Source: a virus
Taxonomy: Duplodnaviria > Caudoviricetes
Strand: one strand, 5' to 3'
DNA: 64,000 nt
Virus record (IMG/VR): IMGVR_UViG_2703719088_000001
Location: 21,011-85,010 of that record
Shown here in pieces: positions 15,833 to 34,842 of the stretch. Position 1 is the first letter of the stretch, and every line of letters begins with the position of its first letter. A program made the translations under genes and the position numbers. The notes under the pieces are model-generated. The model had not been told where the DNA came from. It saw only the letters and a program-made list of their open reading frames with translations, and ran no database searches.

Positions 15833-15848
15833 AGGGGGTGCACCCCCT
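15833..15848. repeat. perfect 16-bp palindrome AGGGGGTGCACCCCCT
   Basis: direct reading; followed by CTGTTAAAAT at 15847, 15857 and 15954. Confidence 0.9.
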
Positions 15849-16986: not shown

Positions 16987-17002
16987 ACTAAACCAGACCC
17001 AC

Positions 17003-17031
17003 AAAAGGCCGCCAATTTGACGGCCTTTTTT
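17003..17031 (+). terminator. bidirectional intrinsic terminator
   Basis: aaaaggccg-ccaatttga-cggcctttttt. Confidence 0.8.
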
Positions 17032-17033
17032 AA

Positions 17034-17085
17034 TGCCCTTTTGGAAACGGACTTGATCCGGCTGGGTTCAACTCCCAGGGGGCAA
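17034..17085 (+). ncRNA. D-armless tRNA-like element
   Basis: acceptor-like TGCCCTT/GGGGGCA, arm CGGA-CTTGA-TCCG, T-arm TGGG-TTCAACT-CCCA. Confidence 0.45.
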
Positions 17086-17494
17086 CAAAAATGATCTTTG
17101 AAATAATTAGACCACACGACAAGAACAGACAGCCATGAAGATCCTGCGATGATATTTCCATTGAATTATCGGGGGAATGTAGCGGGAAAATTATTTGCGG
17201 TTTCGGCTGCGATAATTTCTGACAGAGTGAATAACTGCTGCGAGGAAACATTTGCGAGAACTATTCCAAGCGGCAAGGCTGATAATTCTGTTTCTTTCGT
17301 CCCATGTTCAGAAAGACGTGGGTTAATATCCAAGGGATATTTTAGATGTGAGTGGTGAGAAAAAGTCCATAATTGAATTTAGGGTTTTTATTGGGTTGGG
17401 CAGTACTTGTACGGCCTGGCCTATCATGGACGGGGAACTTGAAAAATAGTTTCCCGTTCTCAAAACATTTGTTTCACCATTAAATTTTACGATT

Positions 17495-17608
17495 ATGAGC
17501 AAAGAACGATTTGAAGAACTTGTGAATTCCTGCGGTATTGAGGTAGGAATTGAGATGTATTGCAGTGAAGAATCATTTGAAGAACTTGATTACGATGATT
17601 TCTGCTGA
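17495..17608 (+). CDS. small acidic peptide (37 aa)
   Basis: starts at the cassette leader ATG; MSKERFEELVNSCGIEVGIEMYCSEESFEELDYDDFC; below the ORF track cutoff. Confidence 0.5.
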   Translation: MSKERFEELVNSCGIEVGIEMYCSEESFEELDYDDFC

Positions 17609-18035
17609 ACAATACAAACAGATTGAGATCGAGGCCATGGCGGAAAATATTCCCGTATGGGGGTTGAAAGATTTTGTCCGCCATCGCCTTGAACTCTCTG
17701 AGAAACCTGCGGCTGAAAAACCGAAGGTTTACACAAATCCTGCGCAGAATAAAATGACAGCCTACGGGCAGAAAATTGCGTGGGAGAAAATAATGGCCGT
17801 CCCTGTAAAGGAACGGGTGGTAAAAGTCTGCCGCTGCACATTCATAGAATTGCAGGGCAGGGCAAAGAGAGGTTTTCAAAACCCTGAGCAGCGGCAGGAT
17901 TTTCTCCTTGATAGGGAGCGGTTTTTCCTGCGGCTGAAAGAGCGGATGAAAACGCTGAAAATCTCCAAAGAGGACATGATCTCCTGCGGCCTTTCGTGGG
18001 ATGATGTCAAGTCCTTCGCCTACCGGGAATTCTGA
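17595..18035 (+). CDS. hypothetical protein
   Basis: ORF 17550..18035, likely start 17595. Confidence 0.6.
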   Translation: MISAEQYKQIEIEAMAENIPVWGLKDFVRHRLELSEKPAAEKPKVYTNPAQNKMTAYGQKIAWEKIMAVPVKERVVKVCRCTFIELQGRAKRGFQNPEQRQDFLLDRERFFLRLKERMKTLKISKEDMISCGLSWDDVKSFAYREF

Positions 18036-18076
18036 TATTCCCGGCAGGACATTATTAACCCCTAAAAATTACGATT

Positions 18077-18307
18077 ATGACACAAAAAATCAGAGGAATT
18101 AGGTTTCATAGCCCTGCTCCTACGAAATTGGAATTTGTATGCGTATTGGTTTATATTCTCAGCCGGAAGAAAATTCTCCTGCGCCCTGCAAGGGAATATG
18201 CATTCCGAAGACGCGAAAAATGGCTTGGCCATTGTTGTCTGATTCAGAAGGAACTCGACATATCTCATAAGACAAAATTCTATTGGGATATTCCAAATGT
18301 TTACTGA
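18077..18307 (+). CDS. hypothetical protein
   Basis: cassette leader TATTAACCCTAAAAATTACGATTATG. Confidence 0.45.
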   Translation: MTQKIRGIRFHSPAPTKLEFVCVLVYILSRKKILLRPAREYAFRRREKWLGHCCLIQKELDISHKTKFYWDIPNVY

Positions 18308-18311
18308 TATC

Positions 18312-18457
18312 AGTACGATAATTCTCAAAGTACGAAAAATCAAGCAAGTACGATAAATCATTAAAGTACTACTTTAATAGAAGTACGATAAATAATTATC
18401 TTGCAGGATTTTAGTACGATTATTCCCGTCAGAGCGATTTCTGTCGGGAGTACGATT
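18312..18457 (+). repeat. cluster of 7 AGTAC(G)A motifs
   Basis: copies at 18312, 18329, 18347, 18365, 18382, 18413 and 18449. Confidence 0.85.
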
Positions 18458-18480
18458 ATTAACCCCTAAAATTTATTCTT

Positions 18481-18807
18481 ATGGAAATCTACAAGACTAC
18501 AATCAAAGGATGTGAGGTGAACATGATTTTCACCGGAAAGAATTATTTCTTCCACAATTCCTTTTATGGCTGGCTGGCTATCGCAGAACGGCAGGAAGGC
18601 CACTACGATAAACCGCAGAAATTTGTTCTGTACATCGGAAACCGCCATACACTTGATGGAACGATGACAAATTCTGTTGTTGCTGCAGCAGTACGGAAAT
18701 TCATCAGAAAATGTGAGAACAAGTTCGTTGAAACATCATGCGAATTTGTAGAAGAGGAAAAAGATTTGGCAGACGCTTATGTCAAGGTCAGCTACAAACT
18801 ACTCTGA
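18481..18807 (+). CDS. hypothetical cassette protein
   Basis: ORF after the conserved leader. Confidence 0.7.
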   Translation: MEIYKTTIKGCEVNMIFTGKNYFFHNSFYGWLAIAERQEGHYDKPQKFVLYIGNRHTLDGTMTNSVVAAAVRKFIRKCENKFVETSCEFVEEEKDLADAYVKVSYKLL

Positions 18808-18867
18808 AAGCTAAGGGAGTTTGCAAGAACTCCCGTAGTACGATTATTCACCCTAAAAGAAACGATT

Positions 18868-19155
18868 ATGAGAAAAATTGATGTCCTTATTTGGGGAATG
18901 AAGCACATTGCGAAAAACCATTCCCTTGAAGCCTCCACGAATTTGTCCGAAGGCGGTGTCTGTATCTTTGGCGGAAATTCCGTGCCGCTGACTGCCGATG
19001 TCGGATTTCTCTGCGAAGACCTGGGAATTCCGAGGATGTTTGTTGAAGGTTGCTCTTTCGGCATTGACGTGTTCCTGCCGGAGAATTTTGACCGCAACGC
19101 AGAATTCCGTGGGGATATGATGTGGAAACGGGCGGATGTCGCGCTCGGTATCTGA
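18868..19155 (+). CDS. hypothetical cassette protein
   Basis: ORF after the conserved leader. Confidence 0.7.
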   Translation: MRKIDVLIWGMKHIAKNHSLEASTNLSEGGVCIFGGNSVPLTADVGFLCEDLGIPRMFVEGCSFGIDVFLPENFDRNAEFRGDMMWKRADVALGI

Positions 19156-19212
19156 GAAATTCCTGCGGAAATGAATTCCGCAGGAGTACGATAAATCCCA
19201 AAACAAACAATT

Positions 19213-19503
19213 ATGATAACAAGAAGAAAGGCATTGAGCATCTTCTCAGACGTGACGATGTTCAAGAAGGTTTCGGAGAAAATCCTCTACCGGAACAAAA
19301 AGGTTTACGTCTTCAAGATGATCCCCTTCAAGGAAAAAGGCTTCAACTACAATTTTCGTGTGAAGGAAACGGAATACGGGGATTATGCGACGGTGGATTT
19401 TGGTCGCTGGACTCCTTTTTCCTCTCAGATGTGCTGCTCGGATATCTGCGAGGATCATCTGCTGGAAATGATTATCTCCCTCTGCAAACGGGGAATGCTC
19501 TGA
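19213..19503 (+). CDS. hypothetical cassette protein
   Basis: ORF after the conserved leader. Confidence 0.7.
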   Translation: MITRRKALSIFSDVTMFKKVSEKILYRNKKVYVFKMIPFKEKGFNYNFRVKETEYGDYATVDFGRWTPFSSQMCCSDICEDHLLEMIISLCKRGML

Positions 19504-19561
19504 GATTTCGGGGGAAATGATTTTCCCCGAAGTACGATTACTAACTCTAAATAAAACAATT

Positions 19562-20236
19562 ATGAAACAAGTGAATGTAAAACTCTACCGCTTCTCGGAA
19601 CTCTCCGAAGAGGCGCAGCAGAAAGTCATTGACAGAGAACGTCAGTACGTAGGAGATTTCCTGACATCTTTTTATGCCAAAGAAAGGGAAGAAACGTTGG
19701 AAAAATTCTGCGACATCTTTGGAATTGTCAAGGTGAAAAAATGGGAAGTTCGTGAAGGTTGGCATCGGTACAACCTGGAATTCACCAGCTGGCCTTTCAC
19801 AACGTATCACAATGTCGGAATCGATCCCGATGAGGTCTGCGGAAAATACCTCATGCGTTATATGAGGGATTTGATGAAAGACTTCTATGAATGGAAATTC
19901 TTCTCAACGCATTTTCATACGGATGAGAACGGGAAATTAACCTACAAGAAAAGACATTCAAAAATCACTCTTGTTGAAGACTGCTGCCTTACCGGAGTGT
20001 GCTACGATTGTGACATCCTTTCTCCGATTTGGGATTGGTACAGAAAGCCTGACTACAAAATCAGCCTCTACGATTTGGTTGATAGTTGTCTGTATAGTTT
20101 TTTCAGAGCATGGGAGCAGGATATTGAGTACTCTTATTCCGATGAAGGTGTGCGTGAAGACCTGCTGGCCAACGAATGCGATGAAGAATATTGTGAGGAT
20201 GGAAGCGTTTTTCGTGGAATTGTCAATGTGGCTTGA
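19562..20236 (+). CDS. hypothetical cassette protein (Y.FSELSEEAQ family)
   Basis: KLYRFSELSEEAQQKV N-terminus and NECDEEYCEDG C-terminus, a type of motif recurrent in mobile elements. Confidence 0.75.
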   Translation: MKQVNVKLYRFSELSEEAQQKVIDRERQYVGDFLTSFYAKEREETLEKFCDIFGIVKVKKWEVREGWHRYNLEFTSWPFTTYHNVGIDPDEVCGKYLMRYMRDLMKDFYEWKFFSTHFHTDENGKLTYKKRHSKITLVEDCCLTGVCYDCDILSPIWDWYRKPDYKISLYDLVDSCLYSFFRAWEQDIEYSYSDEGVREDLLANECDEEYCEDGSVFRGIVNVA

Positions 20237-20295
20237 TAGCTTTCGGGGATGCGAAATCCCCGGGAGTACGATTATTCACCATTAAATTCAGAATT

Positions 20296-20532
20296 ATGGA
20301 GACTATTAAAATTGCTCCGTCCTTGAACGAAATTATTGTAACGAAAAACGGGTTCAAGACCGATTTTGCCGGCGGCATAACCTACGATGCAGATTTTTCC
20401 AAAATCATCAAGAAATATGATGAAACATGGCTGAAGCAACAATTCAGCGCAGCTGTCGCCTTTAGTTCAAAAAGATGGCATCTTGAAAATCTTCTCAACG
20501 ACTTTTTCAAGGTTGAAGGAAAAATCCTTTGA
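20296..20532 (+). CDS. hypothetical cassette protein
   Basis: ORF after the conserved leader. Confidence 0.7.
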   Translation: METIKIAPSLNEIIVTKNGFKTDFAGGITYDADFSKIIKKYDETWLKQQFSAAVAFSSKRWHLENLLNDFFKVEGKIL

Positions 20533-20589
20533 CATCAAGCAGGGAGCAAAATCCCTGCCTGGCGCTATCAACCCCAAAATAATTTGATT

Positions 20590-20859
20590 ATGAGAACAAC
20601 GAGAACGCTCAGACACTGGGCGAACACGACAAGCTACATGGCTTGTCAGAACACCAACGGGAAATATGCAGAAGAAGAGTATAAAAAACTGAAATCCGAA
20701 CAATTTTCCGATTACGTTGAACTTCCATGGTGGAAAACCTTTCGGGATGAGCCGAAATCTTTCAATCGTCCGAAGCTTATCATCAAGGCATGGTATTGGA
20801 GAGGTGCCTGGTGTGATCCGACAAAGGAAATCTATAGACGGCTGTATCTCCCCGCTTAA
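20590..20859 (+). CDS. hypothetical cassette protein
   Basis: ORF after the conserved leader. Confidence 0.7.
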   Translation: MRTTRTLRHWANTTSYMACQNTNGKYAEEEYKKLKSEQFSDYVELPWWKTFRDEPKSFNRPKLIIKAWYWRGAWCDPTKEIYRRLYLPA

Positions 20860-21002
20860 AATCTCTTCTGAAACGATTTGGAATTTTCTGTGTGGATTTT
20901 CTTGTCTGAAACATCAAAATCGCAGGAAAAGCCATTTCTGAAAGTTGTAGGGGTATTCTACAATTCCCTGCAACACCACACTAACTCAAAAATTCAACAA
21001 CT

Positions 21003-21431
21003 ATGGAAAAAGAATTCATGAACAGAGCTCGGATGGAAGAAAAAATCCGAACTATCCTAAAAGGCTGCATTGAAAATCCGGAAGAGTACGAAGATTTAAT
21101 AGAAGACGAGGCTTTTCGCCTGTCTAATAACTTCTGCCGAGATATGAGAACGTACTGCCAAATGATTGACACGCATATTGCTGGAAACTTCTGCGATATT
21201 CGTAATGATTGGAATCATTGTCCTGAGTTTATACCCAGCGATGTTAAGCCATGGGGTAGATTTGATGATGTTGTTTCAAGCATTGTCAATGGCACGATTT
21301 CCGACGAAGACTTGGCCAAGTTCCAGCAGTGGGCGGAAGATTGGTTCTTCACCGCATTTGGCACGTATGGGATAGCCTACAACTTTCAGAATCTTGTCGC
21401 AGCAGTGGAATACGAAGACGATATCGAATGA
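21003..21431 (+). CDS. hypothetical acidic cassette protein
   Basis: ORF after the conserved leader. Confidence 0.75.
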   Translation: MEKEFMNRARMEEKIRTILKGCIENPEEYEDLIEDEAFRLSNNFCRDMRTYCQMIDTHIAGNFCDIRNDWNHCPEFIPSDVKPWGRFDDVVSSIVNGTISDEDLAKFQQWAEDWFFTAFGTYGIAYNFQNLVAAVEYEDDIE

Positions 21432-21492
21432 GGCATTTCCGCAGGATATTGCAATTCTGCGGAAAGCACTACTAACCATAAATATTTCAGTT

Positions 21493-21768
21493 ATGAGAAC
21501 AACAACTTTTGACGCCTGGAAATACGGGTGTTTTGATTTTCAGATGACAGAGCATGATGCACATTTGTGTTATCACCAAGGTCAGTGTGACGATGACGTG
21601 GAAAGAGTAATGCAACTTGACTACATCAAAAAACAACTTGCTGAAATCTCCACTGATGCGATGGTTGAGGCCATTAGTGAATATGGCCCCGATCTTGCTT
21701 CGGCTGATAGGCACGAAATTGAAATGTTCATAGTGTGGATTGCAGCCGGAAATATCGTTGATGAATGA
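21493..21768 (+). CDS. hypothetical cassette protein
   Basis: HQGQCDDDV...IVWIAAGNI; after the conserved leader. Confidence 0.75.
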   Translation: MRTTTFDAWKYGCFDFQMTEHDAHLCYHQGQCDDDVERVMQLDYIKKQLAEISTDAMVEAISEYGPDLASADRHEIEMFIVWIAAGNIVDE

Positions 21769-21843
21769 TAGCCTATGATTTTCTCCCACAGAATTCAACT
21801 ATTCTGTGGGGAGACAAACTACTAACCAATAAATTCAAAGACT

Positions 21844-22026
21844 ATGACAATCGTACACGTAAGGCCGGACTATATAGACCGGCATGAACTAAGCGAGTGG
21901 GAGAGAATGACTCTCTGGGGTATTTCGCAGGAAGAAGGAGTGGAGTTTTACACTCCGCTGGCTTTCCAGGACGCTTTCAATGACGATATGATAAGCGATC
22001 TGGGATATATCTTCTTCTTTGACTGA
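21844..22026 (+). CDS. hypothetical acidic cassette protein
   Basis: ORF after the conserved leader. Confidence 0.7.
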   Translation: MTIVHVRPDYIDRHELSEWERMTLWGISQEEGVEFYTPLAFQDAFNDDMISDLGYIFFFD

Positions 22027-22104
22027 ATGTTTCTTGTTTCTCATAATTGTTTCGGGCGCAGCGGAAGTGATTCGGCTGCGCCTACGATGTTTAACCTTTC
22101 AATT

Positions 22105-22339
22105 ATGAATTAACGAACTTTCTTCTTTCTATACTCAGGCATTGGTTTGGGTTGGAGATGCAATCCGTGGAAATAAAAGCCAGCATTTTTGGTGCGATGG
22201 TGCGTATTGTTGGTACACTGACGAAACGCAGACACATATACAAAGTGTTTGGGTGACGAGAAAAGGTGTTCTAATGTTTAAAGATATTACCAATTCCCAA
22301 GAAACCAGGAGATTGTATCGTGTTGAATTCAATCGCTGA
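22105..22339 (+). pseudogene. cassette gene frameshifted right after its start codon
   Basis: the leader ATG gives ATG AAT TAA; removing 1 nt opens M-INELSSFYTQALVW... Confidence 0.5.
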
Positions 22340-22400
22340 AAAGCTATGGGAGAACGATTTCTCCCATAGCTACCATTGTCTAACACTAAAATTCACTATT

Positions 22401-22913
22401 ATGGAAGAAGAAATTTTATTAGAAGAACTTACCAAGAACTGCAACGAAAAGAAAGAGAAAGTTCTGGAGTTGTTAAAGGCTTTTGACTTGGCAGAACTTG
22501 GAAGTGAAATTCAGCGTCAACAATTCAAGGACATCGAAAACAAAGTCCTGAAAGAAAATGTTTTCCTCTGCGGACGTCCAGAAGTAAAAGTAAGATGTGA
22601 CGACCAACCGATTTTCGGTGAGCGTATCACAGACGAAAAATGGAGTTTTCTTTTGTCTGACGATGATTTTGACAGATTGCAGTCACTTATGCTTCCTCTT
22701 TACGTTGAAGCTAACCTGACGGACGAAAAAGGCTATTACGTCACGAATTGGGACATGATAGCCTGCGACGCGAGACGTGAACTTGTGGAATACATCATCA
22801 TCGAGGTTATTCCATCTGCATTTCGTAAACTTTTCTGGGAGAATCGTGACAGAATCGTTTTTCAGGAAAAACTTATCAAAATCACGAAAGGAGCGTTTGG
22901 AGTTGCTGCCTGA
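22401..22913 (+). CDS. hypothetical cassette protein
   Basis: ORF after the conserved leader. Confidence 0.75.
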   Translation: MEEEILLEELTKNCNEKKEKVLELLKAFDLAELGSEIQRQQFKDIENKVLKENVFLCGRPEVKVRCDDQPIFGERITDEKWSFLLSDDDFDRLQSLMLPLYVEANLTDEKGYYVTNWDMIACDARRELVEYIIIEVIPSAFRKLFWENRDRIVFQEKLIKITKGAFGVAA

Positions 22914-22975
22914 AAGATTCGGGGAAGTTAATTCTTCCCTGAGTCGCTTATGTTTCACTTAAATAAAACACAATT

Positions 22976-23233
22976 ATGCTAACAAGAGATTATTTATTAA
23001 AGATTGGTTTCAAGCACGATACTTGTAGCCCGACAACCGTAGATGATTATTTCAAGAAAGAAAATCCTAATGGTGGTTATATTTCTGTAAGATTTAAGCC
23101 TAACAAGGAAACTGCTGTAGGTCTTTATGCTTATTCAGAGAAAGAACATATCAATATCAGAAAAGTTGTTCTTTCAGATACAAACGTAACTATCCGTGAT
23201 TTCGAGATAGCAAAGGAAATTTGCAATCTCTAA
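22976..23233 (+). CDS. hypothetical cassette protein
   Basis: ORF after the conserved leader. Confidence 0.7.
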   Translation: MLTRDYLLKIGFKHDTCSPTTVDDYFKKENPNGGYISVRFKPNKETAVGLYAYSEKEHINIRKVVLSDTNVTIRDFEIAKEICNL

Positions 23234-23278
23234 CCGCTTTGCAGGGAGAGCACCCCTGCGGAGTACGATACAAATTCA

Positions 23279-23548
23279 ATGAATATGAAAGTAAATATGA
23301 ACAATGCTATTGAAGTAGCAAGACTAAAAAGTCAAATCACAGGATTTCTGACAGGTTCTTTAATCAATGAACATCAACCAATCCCATACCGTATGGATGA
23401 TTTGACTGAGAAGGGAGCAAACTACACTGTTTTAGTTCCTAAAAAGTGGAAAGAGTTCTTTTCTGAAAGGAATCTCAGGCAAGAACTGAGAAACGAAGTT
23501 GATGCAGACAAAATCACTATTGAATATGTTGATTTTGTTAAAGAGTGA
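23279..23548 (+). CDS. hypothetical cassette protein
   Basis: ORF after hairpin and GTACGATA. Confidence 0.7.
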   Translation: MNMKVNMNNAIEVARLKSQITGFLTGSLINEHQPIPYRMDDLTEKGANYTVLVPKKWKEFFSERNLRQELRNEVDADKITIEYVDFVKE

Positions 23549-23613
23549 CTTTGCGGGAATCAGCTTTCCCGCGAAGTAAGAATTTTATGTCTAACCCTTA
23601 AACTCAATAGATT

Positions 23614-23763
23614 ATGACAGACGGAGAAAAAGCAACTGCATTGCTAAACTATCTTGAAACAGAATGTGATAGCAAAACTGCAGTAAGAGTTCTTGAAGAT
23701 TTGATTGAAGACGAGCCTCTTGCTCGTAGGTATGACGAACTTGTAGAAGAAGGAATACTCTGA
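23614..23763 (+). CDS. small acidic cassette protein (49 aa)
   Basis: MTDGEKATALLNYLETECDSK...EEGIL after the conserved leader; below the ORF track cutoff. Confidence 0.65.
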   Translation: MTDGEKATALLNYLETECDSKTAVRVLEDLIEDEPLARRYDELVEEGIL

Positions 23764-23825
23764 TACCTCTACCCGGACACGACAATCCGGGTGGAAACCA
23801 TGTTTAACCCTTAAACTCAAAGATT

Positions 23826-24092
23826 ATGCTATCAGAAGAACAAATCAAAATCAGAATTAATGATGCAGAAGAAGCAATTGAGAAATGCGGTCAGTACATA
23901 AACTATCGTGCGGAAGACATTCTTTCATTTTCTGACATAGAAAGAATCTGCGAACATTTCAGAGGCCGTTGCCACGCAAAGATTAATTATTTTATTGACA
24001 GAAGAAAACCATATCAATGCTTTATAATTCAGAAATATCGCTTTGATATGAGCAAAGTCGGAAGAATGATTACGTCTGAAATCCTTTTTTAG
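23826..24092 (+). CDS. hypothetical cassette protein
   Basis: ORF after the conserved leader. Confidence 0.7.
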   Translation: MLSEEQIKIRINDAEEAIEKCGQYINYRAEDILSFSDIERICEHFRGRCHAKINYFIDRRKPYQCFIIQKYRFDMSKVGRMITSEILF

Positions 24093-24180
24093 CACTCTTG
24101 TGACGATGAAGAATGACGTATTCTCAGGCTGATAGCGATATCAGCCTGAGATCAAATGTTTAACCCTTAAACTCATGATT

Positions 24181-24369
24181 ATGACTAAGACTACTTATGT
24201 GACTATCCGTATTGACTATGAGTACAACGGAGAAGTCAACTACGGAGATGAAAACGAAATTTGCGCCATGGCCGCTGATTTGGTTGTGGAACGTGCTTTG
24301 GCACACAGCCACACCATTGAAAACGGAATCATCATTGACAATATTGAAAACTGCGGTGTTAATATGTAA
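24181..24369 (+). CDS. hypothetical acidic cassette protein
   Basis: ORF after the conserved leader. Confidence 0.7.
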   Translation: MTKTTYVTIRIDYEYNGEVNYGDENEICAMAADLVVERALAHSHTIENGIIIDNIENCGVNM

Positions 24370-24599
24370 ATCTATGTGGACAATTCAATGTATGGGAATG
24401 ACATTTGCATCGTGTCATTTCAAGGAATTTGCAGAATTGGGATTGAAATCCTTTCCTAATGGAATGGGAGCAAAGGTTGTGCGGTGTAGATTCTCCCAGC
24501 CGACATTTACGATTTCTCATGAAAGAAATCTTCTTAATCTTCTGAGGGTGCAATAACCCTCGGAAGAGCCATTGTTTAACCCTAAAAAAAATAACCATT

Positions 24600-24938
24600 A
24601 TGCCACTTACAGCAGATTACAAGCATCAGATTGGAGAGATTACGCTCTCACAGATGATTAATGGAAAGAAAGTACAATTCAAATTCGGGATATTCCAAAG
24701 CAATGCATTTGCTGCCATCGTTTACAGAGGAAAAGAGAAGAGTACTCTGTACAACTTTGTTGGTGGCAAGGAACACGCTGACAATATGATTAAGAACAAA
24801 GTACATTTCTTTGGAGATGCTGAGGTACACGAAATCAAACTGAACTCCGCTTACAAAGAAAGCAGTGTCCTCATAAATTTCTTCACCCGTCTCGGCTACG
24901 AGGTGAAAAGCTACTACGACAAACCAAGAAATAAGTAG
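24600..24938 (+). CDS. hypothetical cassette protein
   Basis: ORF after the conserved leader. Confidence 0.7.
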   Translation: MPLTADYKHQIGEITLSQMINGKKVQFKFGIFQSNAFAAIVYRGKEKSTLYNFVGGKEHADNMIKNKVHFFGDAEVHEIKLNSAYKESSVLINFFTRLGYEVKSYYDKPRNK

Positions 24939-25007
24939 TGATACAAATCCCTGCATGAAACAATACTCATGCAGGGTGCTTCATGTTTAACCCTAAGAAT
25001 AACGATT

Positions 25008-25466
25008 ATGAAAGTAGCAACTATTATCACAGAAATCGATCACGAAGACTTGGTTAATTTGTTTTCCACAGCAATCTATGGAAGCAACTTTTTTGATATC
25101 GGATATGATGAAAAAGATTACTATGGTACAGAGTTGGAATCCCGAAACGATTGCATAGAAGACAAGTGTGCAAAACTGCTGCTCGCAGGAAAAGCAATCT
25201 TTGTCTTTGATGCCTACGCAGAGGATGAAGATGAATTTTATGGGAAATTCAATCATGAATGGATAAATGGTGACGATGGAATTGGAATGAAATACACCAT
25301 CAATCTTGAAAACATCAAGGACGGCATTCAAAAATGTCTTGAAGGAGAAAACAATTGGCTCAGAGATTGTGCAAAGCATCTGATGTATGAACCTTATGCT
25401 CTTGACCTGCCTGAGGCAGAGGCCATCTTGCAGAAGATTGTTTTCGGTGAACTCATCTACGGATGA
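25008..25466 (+). CDS. hypothetical acidic cassette protein
   Basis: ORF after the conserved leader. Confidence 0.75.
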   Translation: MKVATIITEIDHEDLVNLFSTAIYGSNFFDIGYDEKDYYGTELESRNDCIEDKCAKLLLAGKAIFVFDAYAEDEDEFYGKFNHEWINGDDGIGMKYTINLENIKDGIQKCLEGENNWLRDCAKHLMYEPYALDLPEAEAILQKIVFGELIYG

Positions 25467-25570
25467 CAATATCGCTTCGGTGGAATAATATCCACCAAGG
25501 CAGCTGTGGTGGCCACTCTGATTCGCGTCAGGGTGGCCTTCTTTTATGTTTCACTTAAAACTTTAAAATT

Positions 25571-25801
25571 ATGACAGACAAAATCATTCACATCGACGCA
25601 TTAGAGGTAGCCAGAAGGTTCGGTTATCTTATTGCAGGGAAGGGCAAATTCTCAGGATTGGAGTTTGCCAAGAGAATTATTCGCAGTGACAAAGATTGCA
25701 AGTCACATCGTGAAACTTGTGCATCTTCTGTTGCATCCTCTGTTTATGAAATACAGATTTGTGGCATAACTGGTTGTTGCATGGTAACAGAGATTCTTTG
25801 A
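25571..25801 (+). CDS. hypothetical protein
   Basis: ORF after the leader. Confidence 0.55.
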   Translation: MTDKIIHIDALEVARRFGYLIAGKGKFSGLEFAKRIIRSDKDCKSHRETCASSVASSVYEIQICGITGCCMVTEIL

Positions 25802-25806
25802 TAGTT

Positions 25807-26103
25807 ATGAGTTGGAAACCATGTAGAGGAAGCGGAATCATGTTTGACAATGCTTTCAATAGGGAAATGAAGTATCGTAGTCTTTTGATAGATTACAAAT
25901 ACAAGCCAGTCGGATTTATGCAACATTCCAAGACATATTATCATTGGCTGGTTGCAGAAAGGGATTTGCAAAAGATCAACTTCCCAAGTTCAGCAATGTC
26001 ACTTGAACAACTCTATGGGCAGATAATACCACCATCAACCCTCCAGAGTCTTGAGCAGCATAAGCATCTTTGCTACAAACCACTGCAAAGACTTATGCCT
26101 TAG
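25807..26103 (+). CDS. hypothetical protein
   Basis: ttATG start 6 nt after the previous stop. Confidence 0.55.
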   Translation: MSWKPCRGSGIMFDNAFNREMKYRSLLIDYKYKPVGFMQHSKTYYHWLVAERDLQKINFPSSAMSLEQLYGQIIPPSTLQSLEQHKHLCYKPLQRLMP

Positions 26104-26161
26104 TTACAAAGAGTTGGGCTTAACAATCCAACTCTTTACTATTCACCAAAACATTAAAATT

Positions 26162-26395
26162 ATGGAACTATCATGGATTGCAAAAGAAATTTTAAAAAAT
26201 GCCATCTGCCAACTGGAAGATGCCGATTACGAAAACAATGCACGACTTTTTATTGGCGAGACAATGATTCTTATTGACAAAGATGATTTTGAGGAACTGA
26301 AAAAAGACATTCTTAACTTTGACCAAGAATGTGATGACGACATTAAAGAAAAACGTTTTGAAGACATTGTTTCTATACAGACTGAGGTTGTGTAA
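26162..26395 (+). CDS. hypothetical acidic cassette protein
   Basis: ORF after the conserved leader. Confidence 0.7.
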   Translation: MELSWIAKEILKNAICQLEDADYENNARLFIGETMILIDKDDFEELKKDILNFDQECDDDIKEKRFEDIVSIQTEVV

Positions 26396-26434
26396 TAACG
26401 ACCTCAATCGCTATTCACCAAAAATTCAACAATT

Positions 26435-26656
26435 ATGCTACCACTTTACAAGTTCCAAACCAACTACAAGGGATGTTTGTATGAAAAGAAACTCTTCGGA
26501 AACAACCGTAGAGAAATGACTGAGCATTTTAAAGGATGGATTGACTGGCTTGACAGAACTGTCAGTGAGTACAACATCTATGTAAGAAGTGCTTATACTA
26601 AAGTTATCTTTTCCATCAACGGAAAGAAATATAGAGCGGAGTGGATAACCTATTAG
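26435..26656 (+). CDS. hypothetical cassette protein
   Basis: ORF after the conserved leader. Confidence 0.7.
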   Translation: MLPLYKFQTNYKGCLYEKKLFGNNRREMTEHFKGWIDWLDRTVSEYNIYVRSAYTKVIFSINGKKYRAEWITY

Positions 26657-26718
26657 CTCTTAGCCATGCTTAAAGCATAATTTAAGCATGGTACAAATTC
26701 ACCAAAAATTCAATAATT

Positions 26719-27258
26719 ATGGAAAAGTATTTAATCAGACTATGCAAGGCGATTCTTGAAGACAGATTCAACGATGAGAATTACAGAAGAAGAAATTCGT
26801 GGTATGGTCGTGAAATCGAGACACAGCCATTGTTCTGTTCCTATGGAACAATCGGATTCACCGTTTCTGTCTATGACTTGAACGGAAGTCATTTCTGTGA
26901 TGTAGAATGGGATGGAGATTTAGGTAAGCTCACCATTGATGAAGAACCGTGGAGAGACTACATCAACGAACTTTGCCTTGAAGATTTTGACATTACATCT
27001 AATGGTGACGGAGAACTTGAGTGTTATACCGATGCAGGCGAAGACATGATAATCTCACTTGACAAAGTTCGGAAAGAGAATTTGCAAAGGTACATTGACG
27101 ATTTCGACATTAACGAGGAGGTTCTTATATGGTGGCAAAACGGAATTGAGTATGCCAAAAAGAAAAAAGTGCCTTTCGACAATGTGAAAGAGCATTACGA
27201 GGACTACGAAGCATATCTTAAAAAGTTACAAAAAGCCTGTAATAAAATGCCGTTCTAA
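26719..27258 (+). CDS. hypothetical acidic cassette protein
   Basis: ORF after the conserved leader. Confidence 0.75.
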   Translation: MEKYLIRLCKAILEDRFNDENYRRRNSWYGREIETQPLFCSYGTIGFTVSVYDLNGSHFCDVEWDGDLGKLTIDEEPWRDYINELCLEDFDITSNGDGELECYTDAGEDMIISLDKVRKENLQRYIDDFDINEEVLIWWQNGIEYAKKKKVPFDNVKEHYEDYEAYLKKLQKACNKMPF

Positions 27259-27328
27259 CATCTATTCAACTCCCTACGTATCAGAAAACGTAGAGAGTAC
27301 CATATTCACCAATAAAACTCAAATGATT

Positions 27329-27570
27329 ATGGAAATTATTAAGTACAAATGCTTTAAAATCGAGACCGTCCCTGCTGGCTATTCTGCATGGGGCAAAAGT
27401 CCGTTACTAAATAAACTATGCTTGGTATGACGGAAATAAAGAGCAAGAAAAAACTGAACGAAGAATATCTCAAGCAGGATTTTTTCGAACATGAATTAAG
27501 TAATGGAAGGGTTATCATGGTTAGTATGGATCATAGATATTTCTATCGTCCTGAGTACTTTGATGATTGA
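27329..27570 (+). pseudogene. broken cassette gene (two short out-of-frame pieces)
   Basis: MEIIKYK...LCLV* overlapping MLGMTEIK...EYFDD*. Confidence 0.4.
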
Positions 27571-27645
27571 TTGGCCTCACCCTTTGCTGGCTCTACAACC
27601 AGCGAAGGTGCTATGTATTAATCCTAACTATTAATTTCAACAACT

Positions 27646-28005
27646 ATGGAAAAATCAGAACTCAAACCTCGTTATATCGAGGGTAAGGGAATCTTTATTC
27701 CCGTTATCAACAAAGTGCTGGCGATGAAAGATTCCTACAACGGCAAGTGTGTCACTTGGGAAGAGGCTGTCAAGGCTGGTGCTTTCAGTAAAGAGGATGC
27801 TTATATAATCATGTATTTCAAGGATGAGATTAACCGCCTTTTGAAAAAGAATGGCGGCGAACCCCTTGATGACGATTGGTACTGGACGAGTACGCAGTAC
27901 AGTGCTGCCTACGCATGGTACTTGCTTACGTTCAATGGCAACATGACCACCACCTCTAAGCCGAACTACAACCGTGTGCGTGCCGTCTCCGCCTTAGAAA
28001 TTTAA
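27646..28005 (+). CDS. DUF1566/Lcl-like C-type-lectin-fold protein, DGR-target-like
   Basis: C-terminal YWTSTQYSAAYAWYL...NGNM...K..YNRVRAV motif. Confidence 0.7.
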   Translation: MEKSELKPRYIEGKGIFIPVINKVLAMKDSYNGKCVTWEEAVKAGAFSKEDAYIIMYFKDEINRLLKKNGGEPLDDDWYWTSTQYSAAYAWYLLTFNGNMTTTSKPNYNRVRAVSALEI

Positions 28006-28113
28006 ACTTCTAACTTCTGCCTTGCCGTGTCAATGGCACGGCTGGATTTCAGGCCATTTTCGTTCTGTAACGAAGATGGTCTCTTTTGTTTAACCAATTA
28101 AATTCAATAAGTT

Positions 28114-28575
28114 ATGGAAATCAAAGACTTAATATTGATAGAAAGAAAAGCAGAGGAAATGCTTGAGAACGCACTAATGGAATATGTCTCTGAACACGGC
28201 TCTGTCTGCACCGACAATGAAGTGGAAGCGTTTGGTTTGGAAGAAGAAGGGTATGTAACTAAGGTGTTGAACTTCTACGACAATGGTGGTTGCTATTTCT
28301 TTGAGCCGGACAAACCCAATATGGACGGTTTGGACGATATGGACGAGGGAAACTACTATGACAAACTTTATGAAAACGTTGTTTATACCGCTTATCAATG
28401 TCTTTACATAGTAGTTGATGAGAATGGCATTGAACATCTGAAATATTATCGTTTCACAAATGGTGGCGTGACATTTGACGATGATCAGTCAGAGCCAGAC
28501 CATGACGAAATAAAACAACTAAGCCTAATAGATATGCACTATCTGATTCATGCTATAATCCAAACCAAGTGGTAG
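28114..28575 (+). CDS. hypothetical acidic cassette protein
   Basis: ORF after the leader. Confidence 0.75.
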   Translation: MEIKDLILIERKAEEMLENALMEYVSEHGSVCTDNEVEAFGLEEEGYVTKVLNFYDNGGCYFFEPDKPNMDGLDDMDEGNYYDKLYENVVYTAYQCLYIVVDENGIEHLKYYRFTNGGVTFDDDQSEPDHDEIKQLSLIDMHYLIHAIIQTKW

Positions 28576-28639
28576 CATATCTCAGCAAGCCGCCCAATAA
28601 CAGCTTGCTGAACAAACTCTAACTCTAAACTTAATCATT

Positions 28640-28864
28640 ATGAAAAGAACCGCTTTTAAAATTGCATGTGATGCTATCAAAGAAAATGAACCTATCGATC
28701 GTCATTGGTTGAGATTTATTCTTCATCGAAGTAAAAACGAGAAAGAATTGAGAGATTGGGCAAGAGGTTGCCTTGATATTACACTTGACGGAACTGAATC
28801 AAAGTCTCTTATAGGGAGGGCAACAACTGAATTTATCAGACAAGTAGTGAAACAATTAGTTTGA
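28640..28864 (+). CDS. hypothetical cassette protein
   Basis: ORF after the leader. Confidence 0.7.
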   Translation: MKRTAFKIACDAIKENEPIDRHWLRFILHRSKNEKELRDWARGCLDITLDGTESKSLIGRATTEFIRQVVKQLV

Positions 28865-28929
28865 ATCAAGTACAGCATGGCCTTGAAACCATGCTGTACG
28901 CTTAATTTATAACCCATAAACTTTTTACT

Positions 28930-29112
28930 ATGACAGTGTATATAGCAACTGATTGGTTTGGAACAATGGTATTTGACACCAAACCTAAATGGATTGACAA
29001 TGAATGGTATGGACATAGAGCCAGATTTGTGGAAGAGATTCTTCCTGAAGGTTTTAAACAGAAGGAAGGAGAAATGGTTGAAGCAGAAATAGTACTAACA
29101 ATTAGAAAATAG
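28930..29112 (+). CDS. hypothetical cassette protein
   Basis: ORF after the leader. Confidence 0.65.
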   Translation: MTVYIATDWFGTMVFDTKPKWIDNEWYGHRARFVEEILPEGFKQKEGEMVEAEIVLTIRK

Positions 29113-29117
29113 ATGTT

Positions 29118-29330
29118 ATGATGACAGCTTTAAAACAGAACAAACTAAACGAAAAAGTCTCGATCACCTGCTACAGACAAGTAGAAGTTATGACCAGAAG
29201 AGAAGCACTCGAAAAGTACTACGAAGGAATGTGCTGCTCGGAAGGAAGCGAACATGAGCGGTACGAGACAATTTTCTTCCAACTCATGCAAGGTCGCATG
29301 GAATGTTCAGACCAGGTTGATTTCAGATAA
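29118..29330 (+). CDS. hypothetical protein
   Basis: REALEKYYEGMCCSEGSEHERY motif. Confidence 0.7.
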   Translation: MMTALKQNKLNEKVSITCYRQVEVMTRREALEKYYEGMCCSEGSEHERYETIFFQLMQGRMECSDQVDFR

Positions 29331-29368
29331 TAGAATGGCTTCCGGTATTTGCGTATCGGAGGCCAGCC

Positions 29369-29752
29369 ATGTCTAACTATAAATATCATACTATGGGTAA
29401 GAAATGGAATGAAGATGTGCCTGTGGAGGCTGTTCTGAAGCAGGTGCTGATAGAAAACGGAAAGTTGAAAGCCGAGATTTGCGAACTGAAGGATACTCTT
29501 GCACGTAGAGATGCGGCAATCAAGGCTTTCAAGGAATGGCAGTCTAATATCTGTGAGCGCAGCTACAAATATTGGCTCAAAGAAGGACTTGATATGGTTC
29601 ATAACCATCCAAACGCACAAGTCGTGGAATCTCTCCGTGGGCTCCTGGGAAACAACCGAGCATTAGACAAACGTATAAAGGAGATCGAAAGGCTCTATGG
29701 AAACCTTCTGAAGTGCGGAGACCGACTGATTAAATCACAGGAAACCGAATGA
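29369..29752 (+). CDS. hypothetical coiled-coil protein
   Basis: 127 aa ORF. Confidence 0.7.
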   Translation: MSNYKYHTMGKKWNEDVPVEAVLKQVLIENGKLKAEICELKDTLARRDAAIKAFKEWQSNICERSYKYWLKEGLDMVHNHPNAQVVESLRGLLGNNRALDKRIKEIERLYGNLLKCGDRLIKSQETE

Positions 29753-29814
29753 TGTCTCCTTCATGTGTGGCATTGAAACCACACATGGTACAATTGCTTA
29801 ACCATTTAAATTAA

Positions 29815-29980
29815 TTATTTATGAAGCCACCTACCAGAGAATTGACGGATCTGCTACGCTATATGGTATCTCTCAGATGGGAGAGATGTCTGTCATATTA
29901 AGCAAGTAGCCTATTGCAAGGGTGCGAAGAAATTCGCATCTTTGCACACAATCGCTGTGAAGCGAGTTCTTTACTCATAA
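29815..29980 (+). pseudogene. decayed last cassette gene
   Basis: protein-like text YEATYQRIDGSATLYGIS and DGRDVCHIKQVAYCKGAKKF... split across frames after a normal hairpin leader. Confidence 0.4.
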
Positions 29981-29989
29981 TTGTTAATA

Positions 29990-30030
29990 AGACCCCTGTC
30001 CTTTTGCGAGGATGGGGGTTACTTTTTGTA
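29990..30030 (+). terminator. intrinsic terminator ending the cassette block
   Basis: gacccctgtcc-ttttgcga-ggatggggtt followed by a T-rich tract. Confidence 0.55.
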
Positions 30031-30059
30031 TGTTATTTGCACTGATATAGTATTTTTAT

Positions 30060-30091
30060 ATTGTATAATATATTATCTATGTATAACTTTA
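30060..30091 (+). promoter_or_regulatory. Bacteroidetes-type promoter
   Basis: (A)TTG-N20-TAACTTTA, one mismatch to TAnnTTTG. Confidence 0.4.
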
Positions 30092-30123
30092 CAGCCCTAA
30101 CGCATCACGGATAAGCGTATAAT

Positions 30124-30792: not shown

Positions 30793-31022
30793 TGAGTAGA
30801 TTCATCCTGCAACCCAGTAAAAAGCCTGGCTGGTGGGTGTGCACCGACACAGTGAACAATATCGTCTGCCGTTTTGAAGAACACAACTTCAACGGCACGA
30901 AGGATATTACGCTGCTCAACGGCGATACTTTCAAGACGACGGAAGAAGCCTTGAGATACCCGACATACCTGCGCGAGATGGCTGACTGGCTCATAGAAAA
31001 CCACTGCAAAAAAATTATCTGA
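30792..31022 (+). CDS. conserved hypothetical protein
   Basis: GWWVCTDT...CRFEEH...LREMADWL; overlaps both neighbours by 1 nt. Confidence 0.7.
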   Translation: MSRFILQPSKKPGWWVCTDTVNNIVCRFEEHNFNGTKDITLLNGDTFKTTEEALRYPTYLREMADWLIENHCKKII

Positions 31023-31466: not shown

Positions 31467-31546
31467 CATTTAGCCTCCGATGTCATAACAAACAATGGAG
31501 GCGCAATCTAACCAGTATCCGGCAACGGATACACAAATAAGAAGAA

Positions 31547-31729
31547 ATGGAAAACGAGATTAAATGGCACAAAGCGAAAAAAGCTATCAGTTCAAAGAGT
31601 CCGCTGAAGGATATATTGGTGCTCCATGAGTACCCTACGCGCAAAAGAGTCACTCTGGAATATGATGTTGAACCTGGAAAGTATTATATCACACTCGATG
31701 AGTTGATGCAACTCTCAAAGGAGAAATAG
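31547..31729 (+). CDS. hypothetical protein
   Basis: 60 aa ORF. Confidence 0.55.
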   Translation: MENEIKWHKAKKAISSKSPLKDILVLHEYPTRKRVTLEYDVEPGKYYITLDELMQLSKEK

Positions 31730-31795
31730 AACATCAACTCCATCTATCGTTGCAAATAGTGGGGGTACGATTGTCTAACCCGTAATAAAAGTAAC

Positions 31796-32795: not shown

Positions 32796-32807
32796 AAACT
32801 ATAAACT

Positions 32808-33293: not shown

Positions 33294-33410
33294 GTGTTGC
33301 TTTTATCAAGTAAAGTACGAAGTTGTCAAAAATGTAGGCAACGTGTACTTTCTCAATTGACCGACTGGGTGGAGATTGGCCTCTCCATCCACTCCTTATC
33401 TCTAAATAAT

Positions 33411-34784: not shown

Positions 34785-34842
34785 TACCATGCCGGGCAGA
34801 ATCAGCCTTCTGCCCGGCAACCACTTATCTAATTTTAAAGCT

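Follow-up and report, generated by a model that had tools for sequence, protein, structure and literature searches.

Hairpin-leader modules in a Prevotella prophage array as candidate RNA-level punctuation of a long accessory-gene operon

We found that about 31 small open reading frames (ORFs), all in the same orientation, lie at 17.4 to 30.0 kb of a 64,000-nucleotide stretch of a Prevotella prophage (the window) and are separated by a repeated module made of a hairpin and a translation leader. With moderate confidence, we favor the reading that this module is RNA-level punctuation of one long accessory-gene operon of a temperate Prevotella siphophage and that it also supplies homology for gene turnover. 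We found no published description of such a module.

The initial annotation had described an array of about 30 genes with hairpin-and-leader gaps. This was borne out: about 28 gaps share a layout of stop codon, about 5 nt, hairpin, a G-poor leader of about 28 nt, and ATG. A 10- to 14-bp hairpin with a 3- to 8-nt loop is present in about 28 of about 31 gaps (17,428 to 29,821), where its 3' foot lies 24 to 33 nt (mode, 28) from the ATG. Total hairpin length is constant (mode, 30 nt) irrespective of loop size, stop-to-hairpin spacing is constant too, and over 206 units in 10 arrays the geometry varies by no more than a few nucleotides. The four hairpins that had been quoted as examples are all in place, and a (G)TAC 3' of the stem, claimed for at least 10 cassettes, was seen in about 10 units. 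The decay of a few cassettes was confirmed by ORF remnants at 17495/17595, 22105, 24374, 27329/27418, and 29822. Hairpins of at least 10 pairs number 29 on the + strand and 18 on the - strand of the array, compared with a mean of 4.3 in first-order Markov-chain resamplings of the array, which are not true dinucleotide-preserving shuffles. Two extra units lie beyond the array at 31.47 and 31.74 kb. The features are as follows; "model" marks units matched by the covariance model described below.

17002..17035, +, canonical hairpin and T-run terminator closing the gene 5' of the array (sequence reading; WC hairpin list)
17365..17380, +, conserved 16-mer GTCCATAATTGAATTT, putative array promoter or operator, 100 to 150 nt 5' of the first cassette ATG
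17428..17494, +, unit 1: hairpin 17428-17459 (loop TGAAAAAT) and leader, ATG 17495; L030, L033, and L038 keep loop TGAAAGAC in their own first hairpins
18019..18076, +, unit 2: hairpin 18019-18048, leader with TTAACCCC box, ATG 18077 (model)
18312..18455, +, ORF-free AGTACGA box cluster: six exact plus AGTACTA at 18365, spacing 17 to 36 nt
18421..18480, +, unit 3: hairpin 18421-18452, foot AGT|ACGAT, leader, ATG 18481 (model)
18810..18867, +, unit 4: loop GCAA, foot AGT|ACGAT, ATG 18868 (model)
19159..19212, +, unit 5, ATG 19213 (model)
19505..19561, +, unit 6, ATG 19562 (model)
20239..20295, +, unit 7: three G.U pairs, ATG 20296 (model)
20535..20589, +, unit 8, ATG 20590 (model, weak, E 0.26)
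20943..21002, +, unit 9: atypical, about 80 nt of extra spacer before it, ATG 21003 (model, E 0.04)
21436..21492, +, unit 10, ATG 21493 (model)
21784..21843, +, unit 11, ATG 21844 (model)
22054..22104, +, unit 12: GGGCGC...GCGCCT hairpin type that recurs in relatives (model); a decayed gene follows (ATG AAT TAA at 22105; ORF remnant 22142-22339)
22342..22400, +, unit 13, ATG 22401 (model); hairpin and leader each recognizably conserved with L033
22916..22975, +, unit 14: T-rich tail, positive in the loose terminator scan, ATG 22976 (model)
23236..23296, +, unit 15: foot AGT|ACGAT, atypical leader, ATG 23279, 23285, or 23297 (model)
23548..23613, +, unit 16, ATG 23614 (model)
23768..23825, +, unit 17, ATG 23826 (model)
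24122..24180, +, unit 18: loop GCGA, ATG 24181 (model)
24538..24599, +, unit 19: top model score, 42 bits, ATG 24600
24949..25007, +, unit 20, ATG 25008 (model)
25511..25570, +, unit 21: GC-rich stem and TTCTTTTATG, the most terminator-like, ATG 25571; the gene after it (25807) is coupled, without a unit
26108..26161, +, unit 22, ATG 26162 (model)
26380..26434, +, unit 23: stop of the upstream ORF in the loop, 5' arm coding, ATG 26435 (model)
26663..26718, +, unit 24, ATG 26719 (model)
27269..27328, +, unit 25 (model), 5' of a gene that is decayed or has a frameshift (27329-27430 and 27418-27570)
27581..27645, +, unit 26, ATG 27646 (model)
28051..28113, +, unit 27: 14-bp stem, T-rich tail, ATG 28114 (model; terminator scan)
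28582..28639, +, unit 28, ATG 28640
28870..28929, +, unit 29, ATG 28930 (model); the gene after it (29121) is coupled, without a unit
29336..29392, +, unit 30, ATG 29393 (model)
29761..29821, +, unit 31, 5' of a 25-codon ORF remnant, 29822-29900 (model)
29991..30030, +, canonical hairpin and T-run terminator, array end (sequence reading; terminator scan)
31471..31795, +, outlying units 31471-31520 and 31735-31788 (GGT|ACGATTGTCTAACCC), genes at 31547 and 31796 (model, both units)
33294..35691, +, FtsK-like translocase (33294-34784) overlapping a 309-amino-acid Xer-like tyrosine recombinase (34762-35691), context only

We built a covariance model, R1, from the units and accepted matches at E<=1. 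There were 30 matches in this genome, all on the + strand at 18,017 to 31,788, and no match on either strand of the remaining ~70 kb of the 84-kb genome. A further 113 copies lie in contigs of related Prevotella phages, without exception on the coding strand; among 151 genomes of the host's family, 2 matched. The earlier proposal that structure, not primary sequence, is conserved was supported, as covariation extends to all 12 stem pairs, with 96% of cells paired. Stems contained more G.U than A.C pairs both under strand-symmetric detection (276 versus 98) and when units were taken from hairpin-independent gene starts (204 versus 99); the counts in control hairpins were 561 versus 504. Because G.U exceeds A.C in the stems 2- to 3-fold, the fold is under selection on the sense strand, most simply as RNA. 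The covariation, the G.U excess, and the confinement of matches to the coding strand of arrays all favor RNA-level punctuation. So does the - strand block at 36 to 62 kb of the same phage, where genes overlap, are coupled, and lack units.

In the leader, position -3 is A in 79% of units and position -6 in 69%; AAA occupies -13 to -11, and the G content is 5.8%. The Bacteroidetes initiation determinants measured in Flavobacterium johnsoniae are A at -3, -6, -12, and -13 (Baez et al. 2019, PMC6847099), and the fit of our leader to them also supports the punctuation reading. The 3' 15 nt of every leader have the same A's, few G's, and no Shine-Dalgarno sequence, as does the Bacteroidetes Shine-Dalgarno-independent initiation region, but the module adds a T[AC]AC(C) box at about -20 and an ACGAT foot. 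The box keeps its distance from the ATG (19 to 21 nt in 67% of the units that have a box) rather than from the hairpin. Neither box nor foot was enriched above chance in the 4.1-Mb host genome, prophage excluded; each is peculiar to this phage lineage. Thus, the deflationary outcome foreseen in the initial annotation, that only generic leaders would be left, holds for the 3' half of the leader but not for the box and foot. A wider form of that outcome is that nothing here is special: ordinary weak terminators and ordinary Bacteroidetes leaders would be alike by common descent only. Post-stop hairpins are indeed common, the leader's 3' half is a generic initiation region, and adjacent units are alike, as recent duplicates would be. 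However, such gaps are absent from the phage's other operons, the geometry is constant over about 200 units in phages whose arrays cannot be aligned, the box is at chance in the host, and R1 matches only the 2 host-family genomes. We consider this explanation highly unlikely.

Canonical T-run terminators stand on both sides of the array. A conserved 16-mer lies 5' of every array; GTCCATAATTGAATTT is found with at most three mismatches at the same relative position in W, G002, G004, G005, L030, L033, L038, and L046. Within the array, the hairpins had been said to lack U-tracts. This is true of most, which have no T-run (mean of ~2.5 T in the 8 nt 3' of the foot), but 5 to 6 units have a T-rich tail and are positive in a loose terminator scan. 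The host -7 box, TAnnTTTG (consensus from PMC7366714), occurs in 2 of 206 units, versus 5.5 expected. The flanking terminators, the lack of a T-run in most units, the scarcity of the -7 box, and the conserved 16-mer favor punctuation of one operon; against it, 5 to 6 units resemble real terminators, and the box-to-ATG stretch may hold a noncanonical promoter. If it did, each unit could be autonomous, with a terminator hairpin and a noncanonical early promoter (T[AC]AC...TAAA) giving each gene its own short-leader transcript. The model for this is the PeSL (promoter-early stem-loop) cassette of T4-type phages, which has a consensus host sigma-70 promoter, a Shine-Dalgarno sequence, and a variably placed stem-loop, and for which mini-circles and promoter or terminator activity have been demonstrated (Arbiol et al. 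2010, PMC2839356). PeSLs, too, are short repeated modules between small nonessential ORFs of a hyperplastic region; they run from stop through stem-loop (with G.T pairs) and motif to the next start codon and mark single-gene differences between related phages (PMC2839356). The phasing of the T[AC]AC box to the ATG and the T-rich tails fit this explanation, and terminators would likewise give a G.U bias. However, our units have no host promoter box (the sigma(ABfr) -7 box being absent) or Shine-Dalgarno sequence, and their hairpins are fixed in length and position. A -33 element would fall inside the variable stem and cannot be conserved, and transcripts starting 3' of the box would have a leader of <10 nt, a class that is rare in Bacteroides (3.7%; PMC7366714). 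In addition, most hairpins lack a T-run, and neither a phage sigma factor nor a phage RNA polymerase was found. We regard autonomous units as quite unlikely.

AGTACGA occurs 16 times in the window versus 4.6 expected, with 12 copies on the + strand at 18,312 to 23,268, and GTACGA over the ten array regions occurs 171 times on the coding strand versus 16 on the other. In every relative, many units retain the stem base ACTTTC...GAAAGT and the foot AGT|ACGA(T); about one-third of window units keep the exact foot, and others have ACCAT, GCCAT, or ACAAA. An ORF-free cluster of 3 to 7 AGTACGA boxes, some in mini-hairpin loops, lies at the same relative position in 9 of 10 arrays, and the window's cluster (18312..18455) folds with z = -4.5. 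Passive stabilization does not explain the foot, the T[AC]AC box, or the cluster, and this weighs against the reading we favor; these elements point to a binding factor. It is possible, though unlikely, that the module is a factor-dependent code in which an RNA-binding protein or endoribonuclease, of phage or host, reads the 30-nt hairpin and AGUACGA foot. About 30 cistrons would then be processed, stabilized, or shut off together, with the 5' AGUACGA cluster as a loading or decoy site. Such a factor would resemble Cas6/Csy4, in cleaving repeat hairpins at their 3' foot, and T4 RegB and RegA, in acting on early messages. The loop-independent hairpin length, the conserved base and foot, the strand bias, the recurrent cluster, and the finding that box and foot are not host-wide signals all argue for it. 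Against it, only about a third of window units keep the exact foot, no candidate protein was found, and GUAC is self-complementary, so that the box clusters may merely self-fold.

We compared the arrays of relatives, which are unalignable at the nucleotide level, while their flanks are ~70% identical. The upstream neighbor is nonhomologous in 57 of 64 homologous cassette pairs, and gene content is mosaic at the single-gene scale, with some order changes. Neighboring leaders share "dialects" (p<0.0005, window), which match different relatives. Co-inheritance is about equally weak for the upstream and the downstream hairpin (p ~0.005 each). Thus, the expectation that relatives would differ at the motif stood in part: the module is kept and genes turn over singly, but there is no sign of a single crossover point at the motif. 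There were no Pfam matches among the ~30 products, and the ten largest matched only PHROGs of unknown function, which leaves the suggested anti-defense arsenal unsupported. Could the cassettes be mobile as DNA, with an Xer-like recombinase inserting, excising, and reordering them at folded hairpin sites, as in integrons? Like integron attC arrays and integrase-less attC clusters, the array holds same-strand promoterless small ORFs, each with a site of conserved fold and base and variable top. The 12-bp arms and 6-nt center match tyrosine-recombinase core-site geometry, a second, small tyrosine recombinase lies beside FtsK with synteny in 5/5 relatives, and the single-gene mosaicism would follow. 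However, this recombinase lies 4.7 kb past the array, behind a conserved regulatory block, and scores 19 bits versus the 265-bit integron-integrase cutoff; no IntI-type integrase was found. The stems are near perfect, with no conserved extrahelical bases or R/L box pattern. The wobble bias points to the coding strand, whereas attC sites use the bottom strand; each site is followed by a conserved translation leader, and the equally weak co-inheritance on both sides indicates no single crossover point. No relative pair close enough for a clean event was found. This is the least probable of the explanations, and a very improbable one. A dedicated acquisition machine of another kind was not upheld either. 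REP/RAYT elements and IS200/IS605 ends (HUH) share a variable hairpin and a short conserved foot motif on one strand, but no Y1/HUH enzyme was found in five phage genomes, and our units are confined to one operon and strand and phased to start codons, not dispersed.

If the module punctuates one operon at the RNA level, RNA polymerase would start from a single control region at ~17.36 to 17.46 kb and read through to the terminator at 29.99 kb. The hairpins would be barriers to 3'-exonucleases and weak attenuators, and they might also mark a site of endonucleolytic cleavage at the AGU|ACGA foot. After cleavage, every mRNA would carry a 3' hairpin and have a 5' untranslated region of ~28 nt, near the natural Bacteroides length. 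With the standard leader, any ORF that is inserted could be translated independently of its neighbor. One result speaks against this reading: in folding simulations the hairpin had no effect on leader openness (unpaired probability, 0.61 native versus 0.59 disrupted). The T7 RNase III sites R0.3 to R1.3 and the SP82/SPO1 early mRNA sites are intercistronic processing hairpins of phage early operons; RNase III substrates span roughly two turns of helix and contain an internal loop. The present hairpins likewise lie between cistrons of what would be one long early transcript, are conserved in structure, and are predicted to provide every message with a protective stem-loop at its 3' end. Unlike the T7 sites, their stems are perfect and only 10 to 13 bp long, and the AGUACGA foot has no T7 counterpart.

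The unalignable arrays, singly swapped neighbors, and leader dialects fit the second part of our reading. The ~30 similar 60-nt modules would offer short homologies at which co-infecting related phages swap genes or small blocks, as the comparison of relatives partly shows. The arrays would then be mosaic because single genes or small blocks are exchanged at module homologies.

About 31 small ORFs, all on the plus strand, are bounded by T-run terminators at 17,002 to 17,035 and 29,991 to 30,030. About 28 of the gaps in this array hold a hairpin of 10 to 14 bp, and the foot at its 3' end lies 24 to 33 nt (mode 28) from the next ATG. The array contains 29 plus-strand hairpins with 10 or more pairs, against a mean of 4.3 in first-order Markov-chain resamplings of it, which are not true shuffles. 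The sequence AGTACGA is present in 16 copies against 4.6 expected, 12 of them on the plus strand within the array. The four hairpins that the initial annotation quoted as examples are all correct.

Each gap of about 60 nt, which we call a unit, runs from a stop codon through the hairpin and a G-poor leader to the ATG. We compiled unit statistics from 206 copies in ten arrays. The stem begins 4 to 6 nt after the stop codon, and the hairpin has a fixed total length (30 nt in 91 copies and mostly 28 to 32 nt otherwise), with a loop of 4, 6 or 8 nt in which greater length is traded against stem length. The common stem base is ACTTTC...GAAAGT, and the most frequent foot is AGT/ACGAT. In two thirds of the units with a T[AC]AC box, the box lies 19 to 21 nt upstream of the ATG, and it is phased more tightly to the ATG than to the hairpin. 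What may be the same module, or a sister of it, carries a CTATTAACCAAW box in a Segatella copri phage. Downstream of the box, the leader carries TAAA at roughly -14 to -11, followed by A at -6 in 69% of units, A at -3 in 79% and T at -1 in 91%; the window consensus has AAA at -13 to -11, and the G content of leaders is 5.8%.

We then asked how widely this design is distributed. Primase-based searches returned 9 viral loci and 20 metagenome loci, with much redundancy among them. Five relatives covering the whole primase-to-recombinase stretch each carry 20 to 30 units of the same design. In primase scans of viral, metagenome and genome collections, no relative exceeded 72% primase identity; megablast of the phage collection found no closer relative, and the sole match in exact-protein look-ups was the identical contig of the window itself. 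Among the relatives is a provirus of Prevotella sp. P2-180 (contig NZ_NPJI01000037.1) whose primase is 51% identical, which identifies the hosts as Prevotella.

In an alignment of 45 units all 12 stem pairs covary, and 96% of cells are paired, against 39 to 45% for slid partners. Since a hairpin was the basis on which these units were selected, the covariation alone carries information; it supports the earlier proposal that structure rather than primary sequence is conserved. A covariance model built on this alignment matched 30 copies in this genome (14 from the training set and 16 new), all on the plus strand between 18.0 and 31.8 kb, a span of 14 kb, and 113 copies in relatives, all on the coding strand of the array. 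Among 151 host-family genomes, matches were limited to the known lysogen and one other genome. The latter holds a single good match of 37.7 bits (L055, at G028:C7:23740-23791), which could be a marker of another prophage of the same lineage. Outside the prophage, the 4.1-Mb host genome contains the box motif about as often as expected by chance. Rfam gave no match at E<=1 for 15,000 to 33,000 on either strand, and literature searches yielded no published description of the module. We conclude that the module is real, strongly non-random and common to the whole phage family.

To place the fold on a strand, we counted wobble pairs, with stem detection that makes no distinction between G.T and A.C. 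Unit hairpins contain 276 G.U and 98 A.C pairs, whereas other hairpins from the same regions contain 561 and 504; when gene starts were called without reference to hairpins, the counts are 204 and 99. Therefore, selection acts on the sense-strand fold, which is consistent with RNA or with single-stranded DNA of the top strand; a double-stranded site for a protein, or a bottom-strand fold of the attC type, is inconsistent with it. GNRA tetraloops were rejected as an RNA signature, being ambiguous: of 33 four-base loops, 13 are GNRA and 7 the reverse complement, and the centre is often the palindrome TTGCAA.

Known RNA hairpins differ from the units in several respects. Intrinsic terminators have a GC-rich hairpin followed directly by a U-tract, whereas most units lack a T-run: across 119 gaps, the first 8 nt past the foot contain about 2.5 T on average. 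The initial statement that the hairpins have no U-tract thus holds for most units but not for five or six in the window that pass a loose terminator scan (22916, 24538, 25511, 28051 and 28870); the scan also returned the true terminator at 29991. RNase III sites of the T7 type span about 20 bp of duplex RNA and usually include an internal loop, whereas the unit stems are uninterrupted and, at 10 to 14 bp, too short for this reading. A role as structural insulator of the leader found no support: disrupting the hairpin in silico left leader accessibility unchanged; in folding simulations, leader accessibility was 0.61 in the array and 0.56 in other genes (p 0.07). One hairpin type, GGGCGC...GCGCCT, recurs in the window (22054-22083) and in related phages (L030rc 5803-5832, L033, G002 and G004); it has a T-rich tail and is flanked by a conserved TGTTT. 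It is about 80% conserved between phages while the adjacent proteins are just 49% identical, which points to a separate internal signal, possibly a genuine terminator.

The 3' half of the unit resembles a known type of initiation region. In Flavobacterium johnsoniae, ribosome profiling and reporters showed that A at -3, -6, -12 and -13 promotes Shine-Dalgarno-independent initiation (PMC6847099). The units share with this Bacteroidetes region (PMC6847099) the conserved A positions, the low G content and the lack of a Shine-Dalgarno site. Since the conserved A positions of the leader are the F. johnsoniae determinants, the 3' half is an optimized but generic Bacteroidetes initiation region. A promoter in the unit is less consistent with the counts: the Bacteroidetes -7 box, consensus TAnnTTTG (PMC7366714), is found in 2 of 206 units against 5.5 expected, and a -33/-7 pair in 3 of 206. 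Leaders shorter than 10 nt are rare in Bacteroides, where 23 to 32 nt is typical (PMC7366714). A transcription start downstream of the box would leave fewer than 10 nt, and a cut at the hairpin foot would leave about 28 nt, close to the typical length. We found neither a phage RNA polymerase nor a clear sigma factor in the phage, the only match being a 16-bit region-4-like HTH; the large ORFs encode tail proteins. Pairing of the box with 16S rRNA was rejected: the two box variants, TTAAC and TTCAC, correspond to separate sites on the rRNA, and therefore one pairing cannot account for both. One leader dialect, TTGTTTAAC(C/T)(C/T)TAAA (for example at 24571-24599 and 28086-28113), may resemble the leader of gene 10 in phage T7, which contains the 'epsilon' translational enhancer (TTTGTTTAACTTTAAG), a likeness that may be coincidence.

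The initial annotation had read the array as a cassette acquisition or shuffling system, or as a code for mRNA processing and stabilization. Its genes do turn over at the modules, but we found no HUH enzyme in five phage genomes, no integron integrase and no clear sign of a fixed crossover point. Array DNA is not alignable between relatives; the flanking genes are about 70% identical. In 57 of 64 cross-genome pairs of homologous cassettes (25 to 79% amino-acid identity, some in reversed order), the upstream neighbor is unrelated. Hairpins flanking homologous cassettes are slightly more alike than background both upstream (p 0.0055) and downstream (p 0.0039), and the leaders are marginally so. 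As both hairpins are weakly co-inherited, the comparison gives no clear indication of a single fixed crossover point. In 5 of 6 arrays, leaders resemble their neighbors more than they resemble distant leaders. In the window, dialect blocks best match different related phages (G005-like at 18.1-20.3 kb, G003/G001-like at 23.0-25.6 kb and G002-like at 26.2-27.3 kb), which fits block-wise phage-phage exchange or local gene conversion. The only near-identical pairs of relatives did not cover the array; between the related loci L030 and L038 (86% in places), homology restarts at or near the ATG, but the hairpins in that region are all of one generic type.

The phage has a 394-aa integrase at the provirus end and a 309-aa Xer-like recombinase 4.7 kb beyond the array, which overlaps the end of the FtsK-like gene and is syntenic in all five relatives. 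In integrons an IntI-type integrase adjoins the array, whereas the 309-aa protein scores 19.3 bits against TIGR02249 (cut-off 265). The attC site is an imperfect palindrome with R and L boxes and extrahelical bases that folds on the bottom strand, whereas the 12-bp unit stems are 96% paired, have no conserved bulge and show a bias for the top, coding strand. Thus, an integron-like array served by the Xer-like recombinase is not supported at this locus. REP/RAYT and IS200/IS605 copies are dispersed in either orientation, whereas the units lie on one strand within 14 kb, and the Y1 (HUH) transposase PF01797 is absent from phage genomes G000, G001, G003, G004 and G005 (three complete). The units do resemble T4-type PeSL elements: they separate small accessory ORFs in a hyperplastic region and mark where relatives differ. 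However, PeSL elements contain a consensus host primary-sigma promoter, which the units lack. The PeSL stem-loop terminates or attenuates transcription; in the array, about 28 gaps have a stable hairpin and five or six a T-rich tail.

The array products gave few clues to function. None reaches a Pfam cut-off; sub-threshold matches are to Lcl_C (product of 27646-28005) and to Yuri_gagarin and DivIVA (product of 29393-29752). The ten largest match only PHROGs families of unknown function. In the 119-aa product of 27646-28005, the C terminus matches both Lcl_C (23.5 bits, below cut-off) and the C-terminal end of PHROG 4245. The 'anti-defence arsenal' of the initial annotation is a guess. The one recognizable counter-defence gene lies outside the array, encoding a 344-aa protein (38397-39431, minus strand) with a clear domain of Tad3, the type I Thoeris inhibitor (E 1e-22).

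The window represents bases 21,011 to 85,010 of an 85-kb record, which is listed in IMG/VR as a provirus with about 80% completeness. Among the products of the window are a 2,433-aa tape measure protein, tail fibre proteins, a large terminase, an SPP1-type portal, a D5-type primase, an FtsK-like translocase and two tyrosine recombinases. The Xer-like recombinase gene, which starts at 34762, overlaps the end of the FtsK-like gene by 23 nt, and a perfect 12-bp hairpin lies just downstream of that start (34790-34819). In the 913-aa terminase (5390-8131), the terminase matches fall into two parts (residues about 50-415 and 414-710) and the N-terminal part has a DnaC-like match, a pattern consistent with an inserted element such as an intein. 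The genes of the minus-strand block at 36-62 kb overlap or abut without unit-type gaps; a tRNA-Ala (TGC) gene lies within this block (54330-54402, minus strand).

Two features near the start of the array are conserved:

17365-17380: 16-mer GTCCATAATTGAATTT, located 100 to 150 nt upstream of the first cassette in eight related arrays; its flanks are not conserved
17428-17459: first hairpin, whose 8-nt loop is kept (TGAAAAAT in the window)

The first-hairpin loop is TGAAAGAC in three related loci (L030, L033 and L038), while the loops of later units vary freely. It may resemble the GAAAA-type loop of lambda boxB and, by that analogy, would suggest a loading site for antitermination. The 16-mer, a candidate from its position and conservation, may be an operator or promoter of the array; a second copy lies near the recombinase region of the related genome G004. 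In 9 of 10 arrays, an ORF-free cluster of 3 to 7 AGTACGA boxes lies 0.7 to 1 kb into the array. Together, the 16-mer, the first loop and the box cluster suggest a single control region and a putative factor that reads AGUACGA.

The best reading of these sequence data is that the module would serve as RNA punctuation of a long accessory-gene operon, joining a 3' hairpin to a standard leader without a Shine-Dalgarno site; gene turnover at the modules would follow as a side effect. A further step, which we think improbable, is a lineage-specific RNA operon code. A putative phage or host protein would recognize the 30-nt hairpin together with the AGUACGA foot and would act, by cutting or binding, at each of the roughly 30 junctions, so that one 12-kb transcript would become individually stabilized or jointly silenced messages; the ORF-free box cluster near the operon start would be a loading or decoy site. 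If true, such a code would be a natural counterpart of synthetic operon insulation by Csy4, in a phylum without Shine-Dalgarno initiation.

Prevotella and its relatives are abundant in the gut and rumen but difficult to work with genetically, and the gene-expression signals of this group are poorly known because it does not use Shine-Dalgarno sites. The 60-nt unit, which the phage uses on dozens of unrelated genes, is a candidate portable part for expression and insulation in these bacteria. The module also reliably flags a fast-evolving accessory region of this Prevotella prophage family, and such regions are the usual place to search for counter-defence and host-takeover genes. If the conserved foot and box are read by a specific factor, this would be a new form of RNA-level co-regulation of many phage genes.
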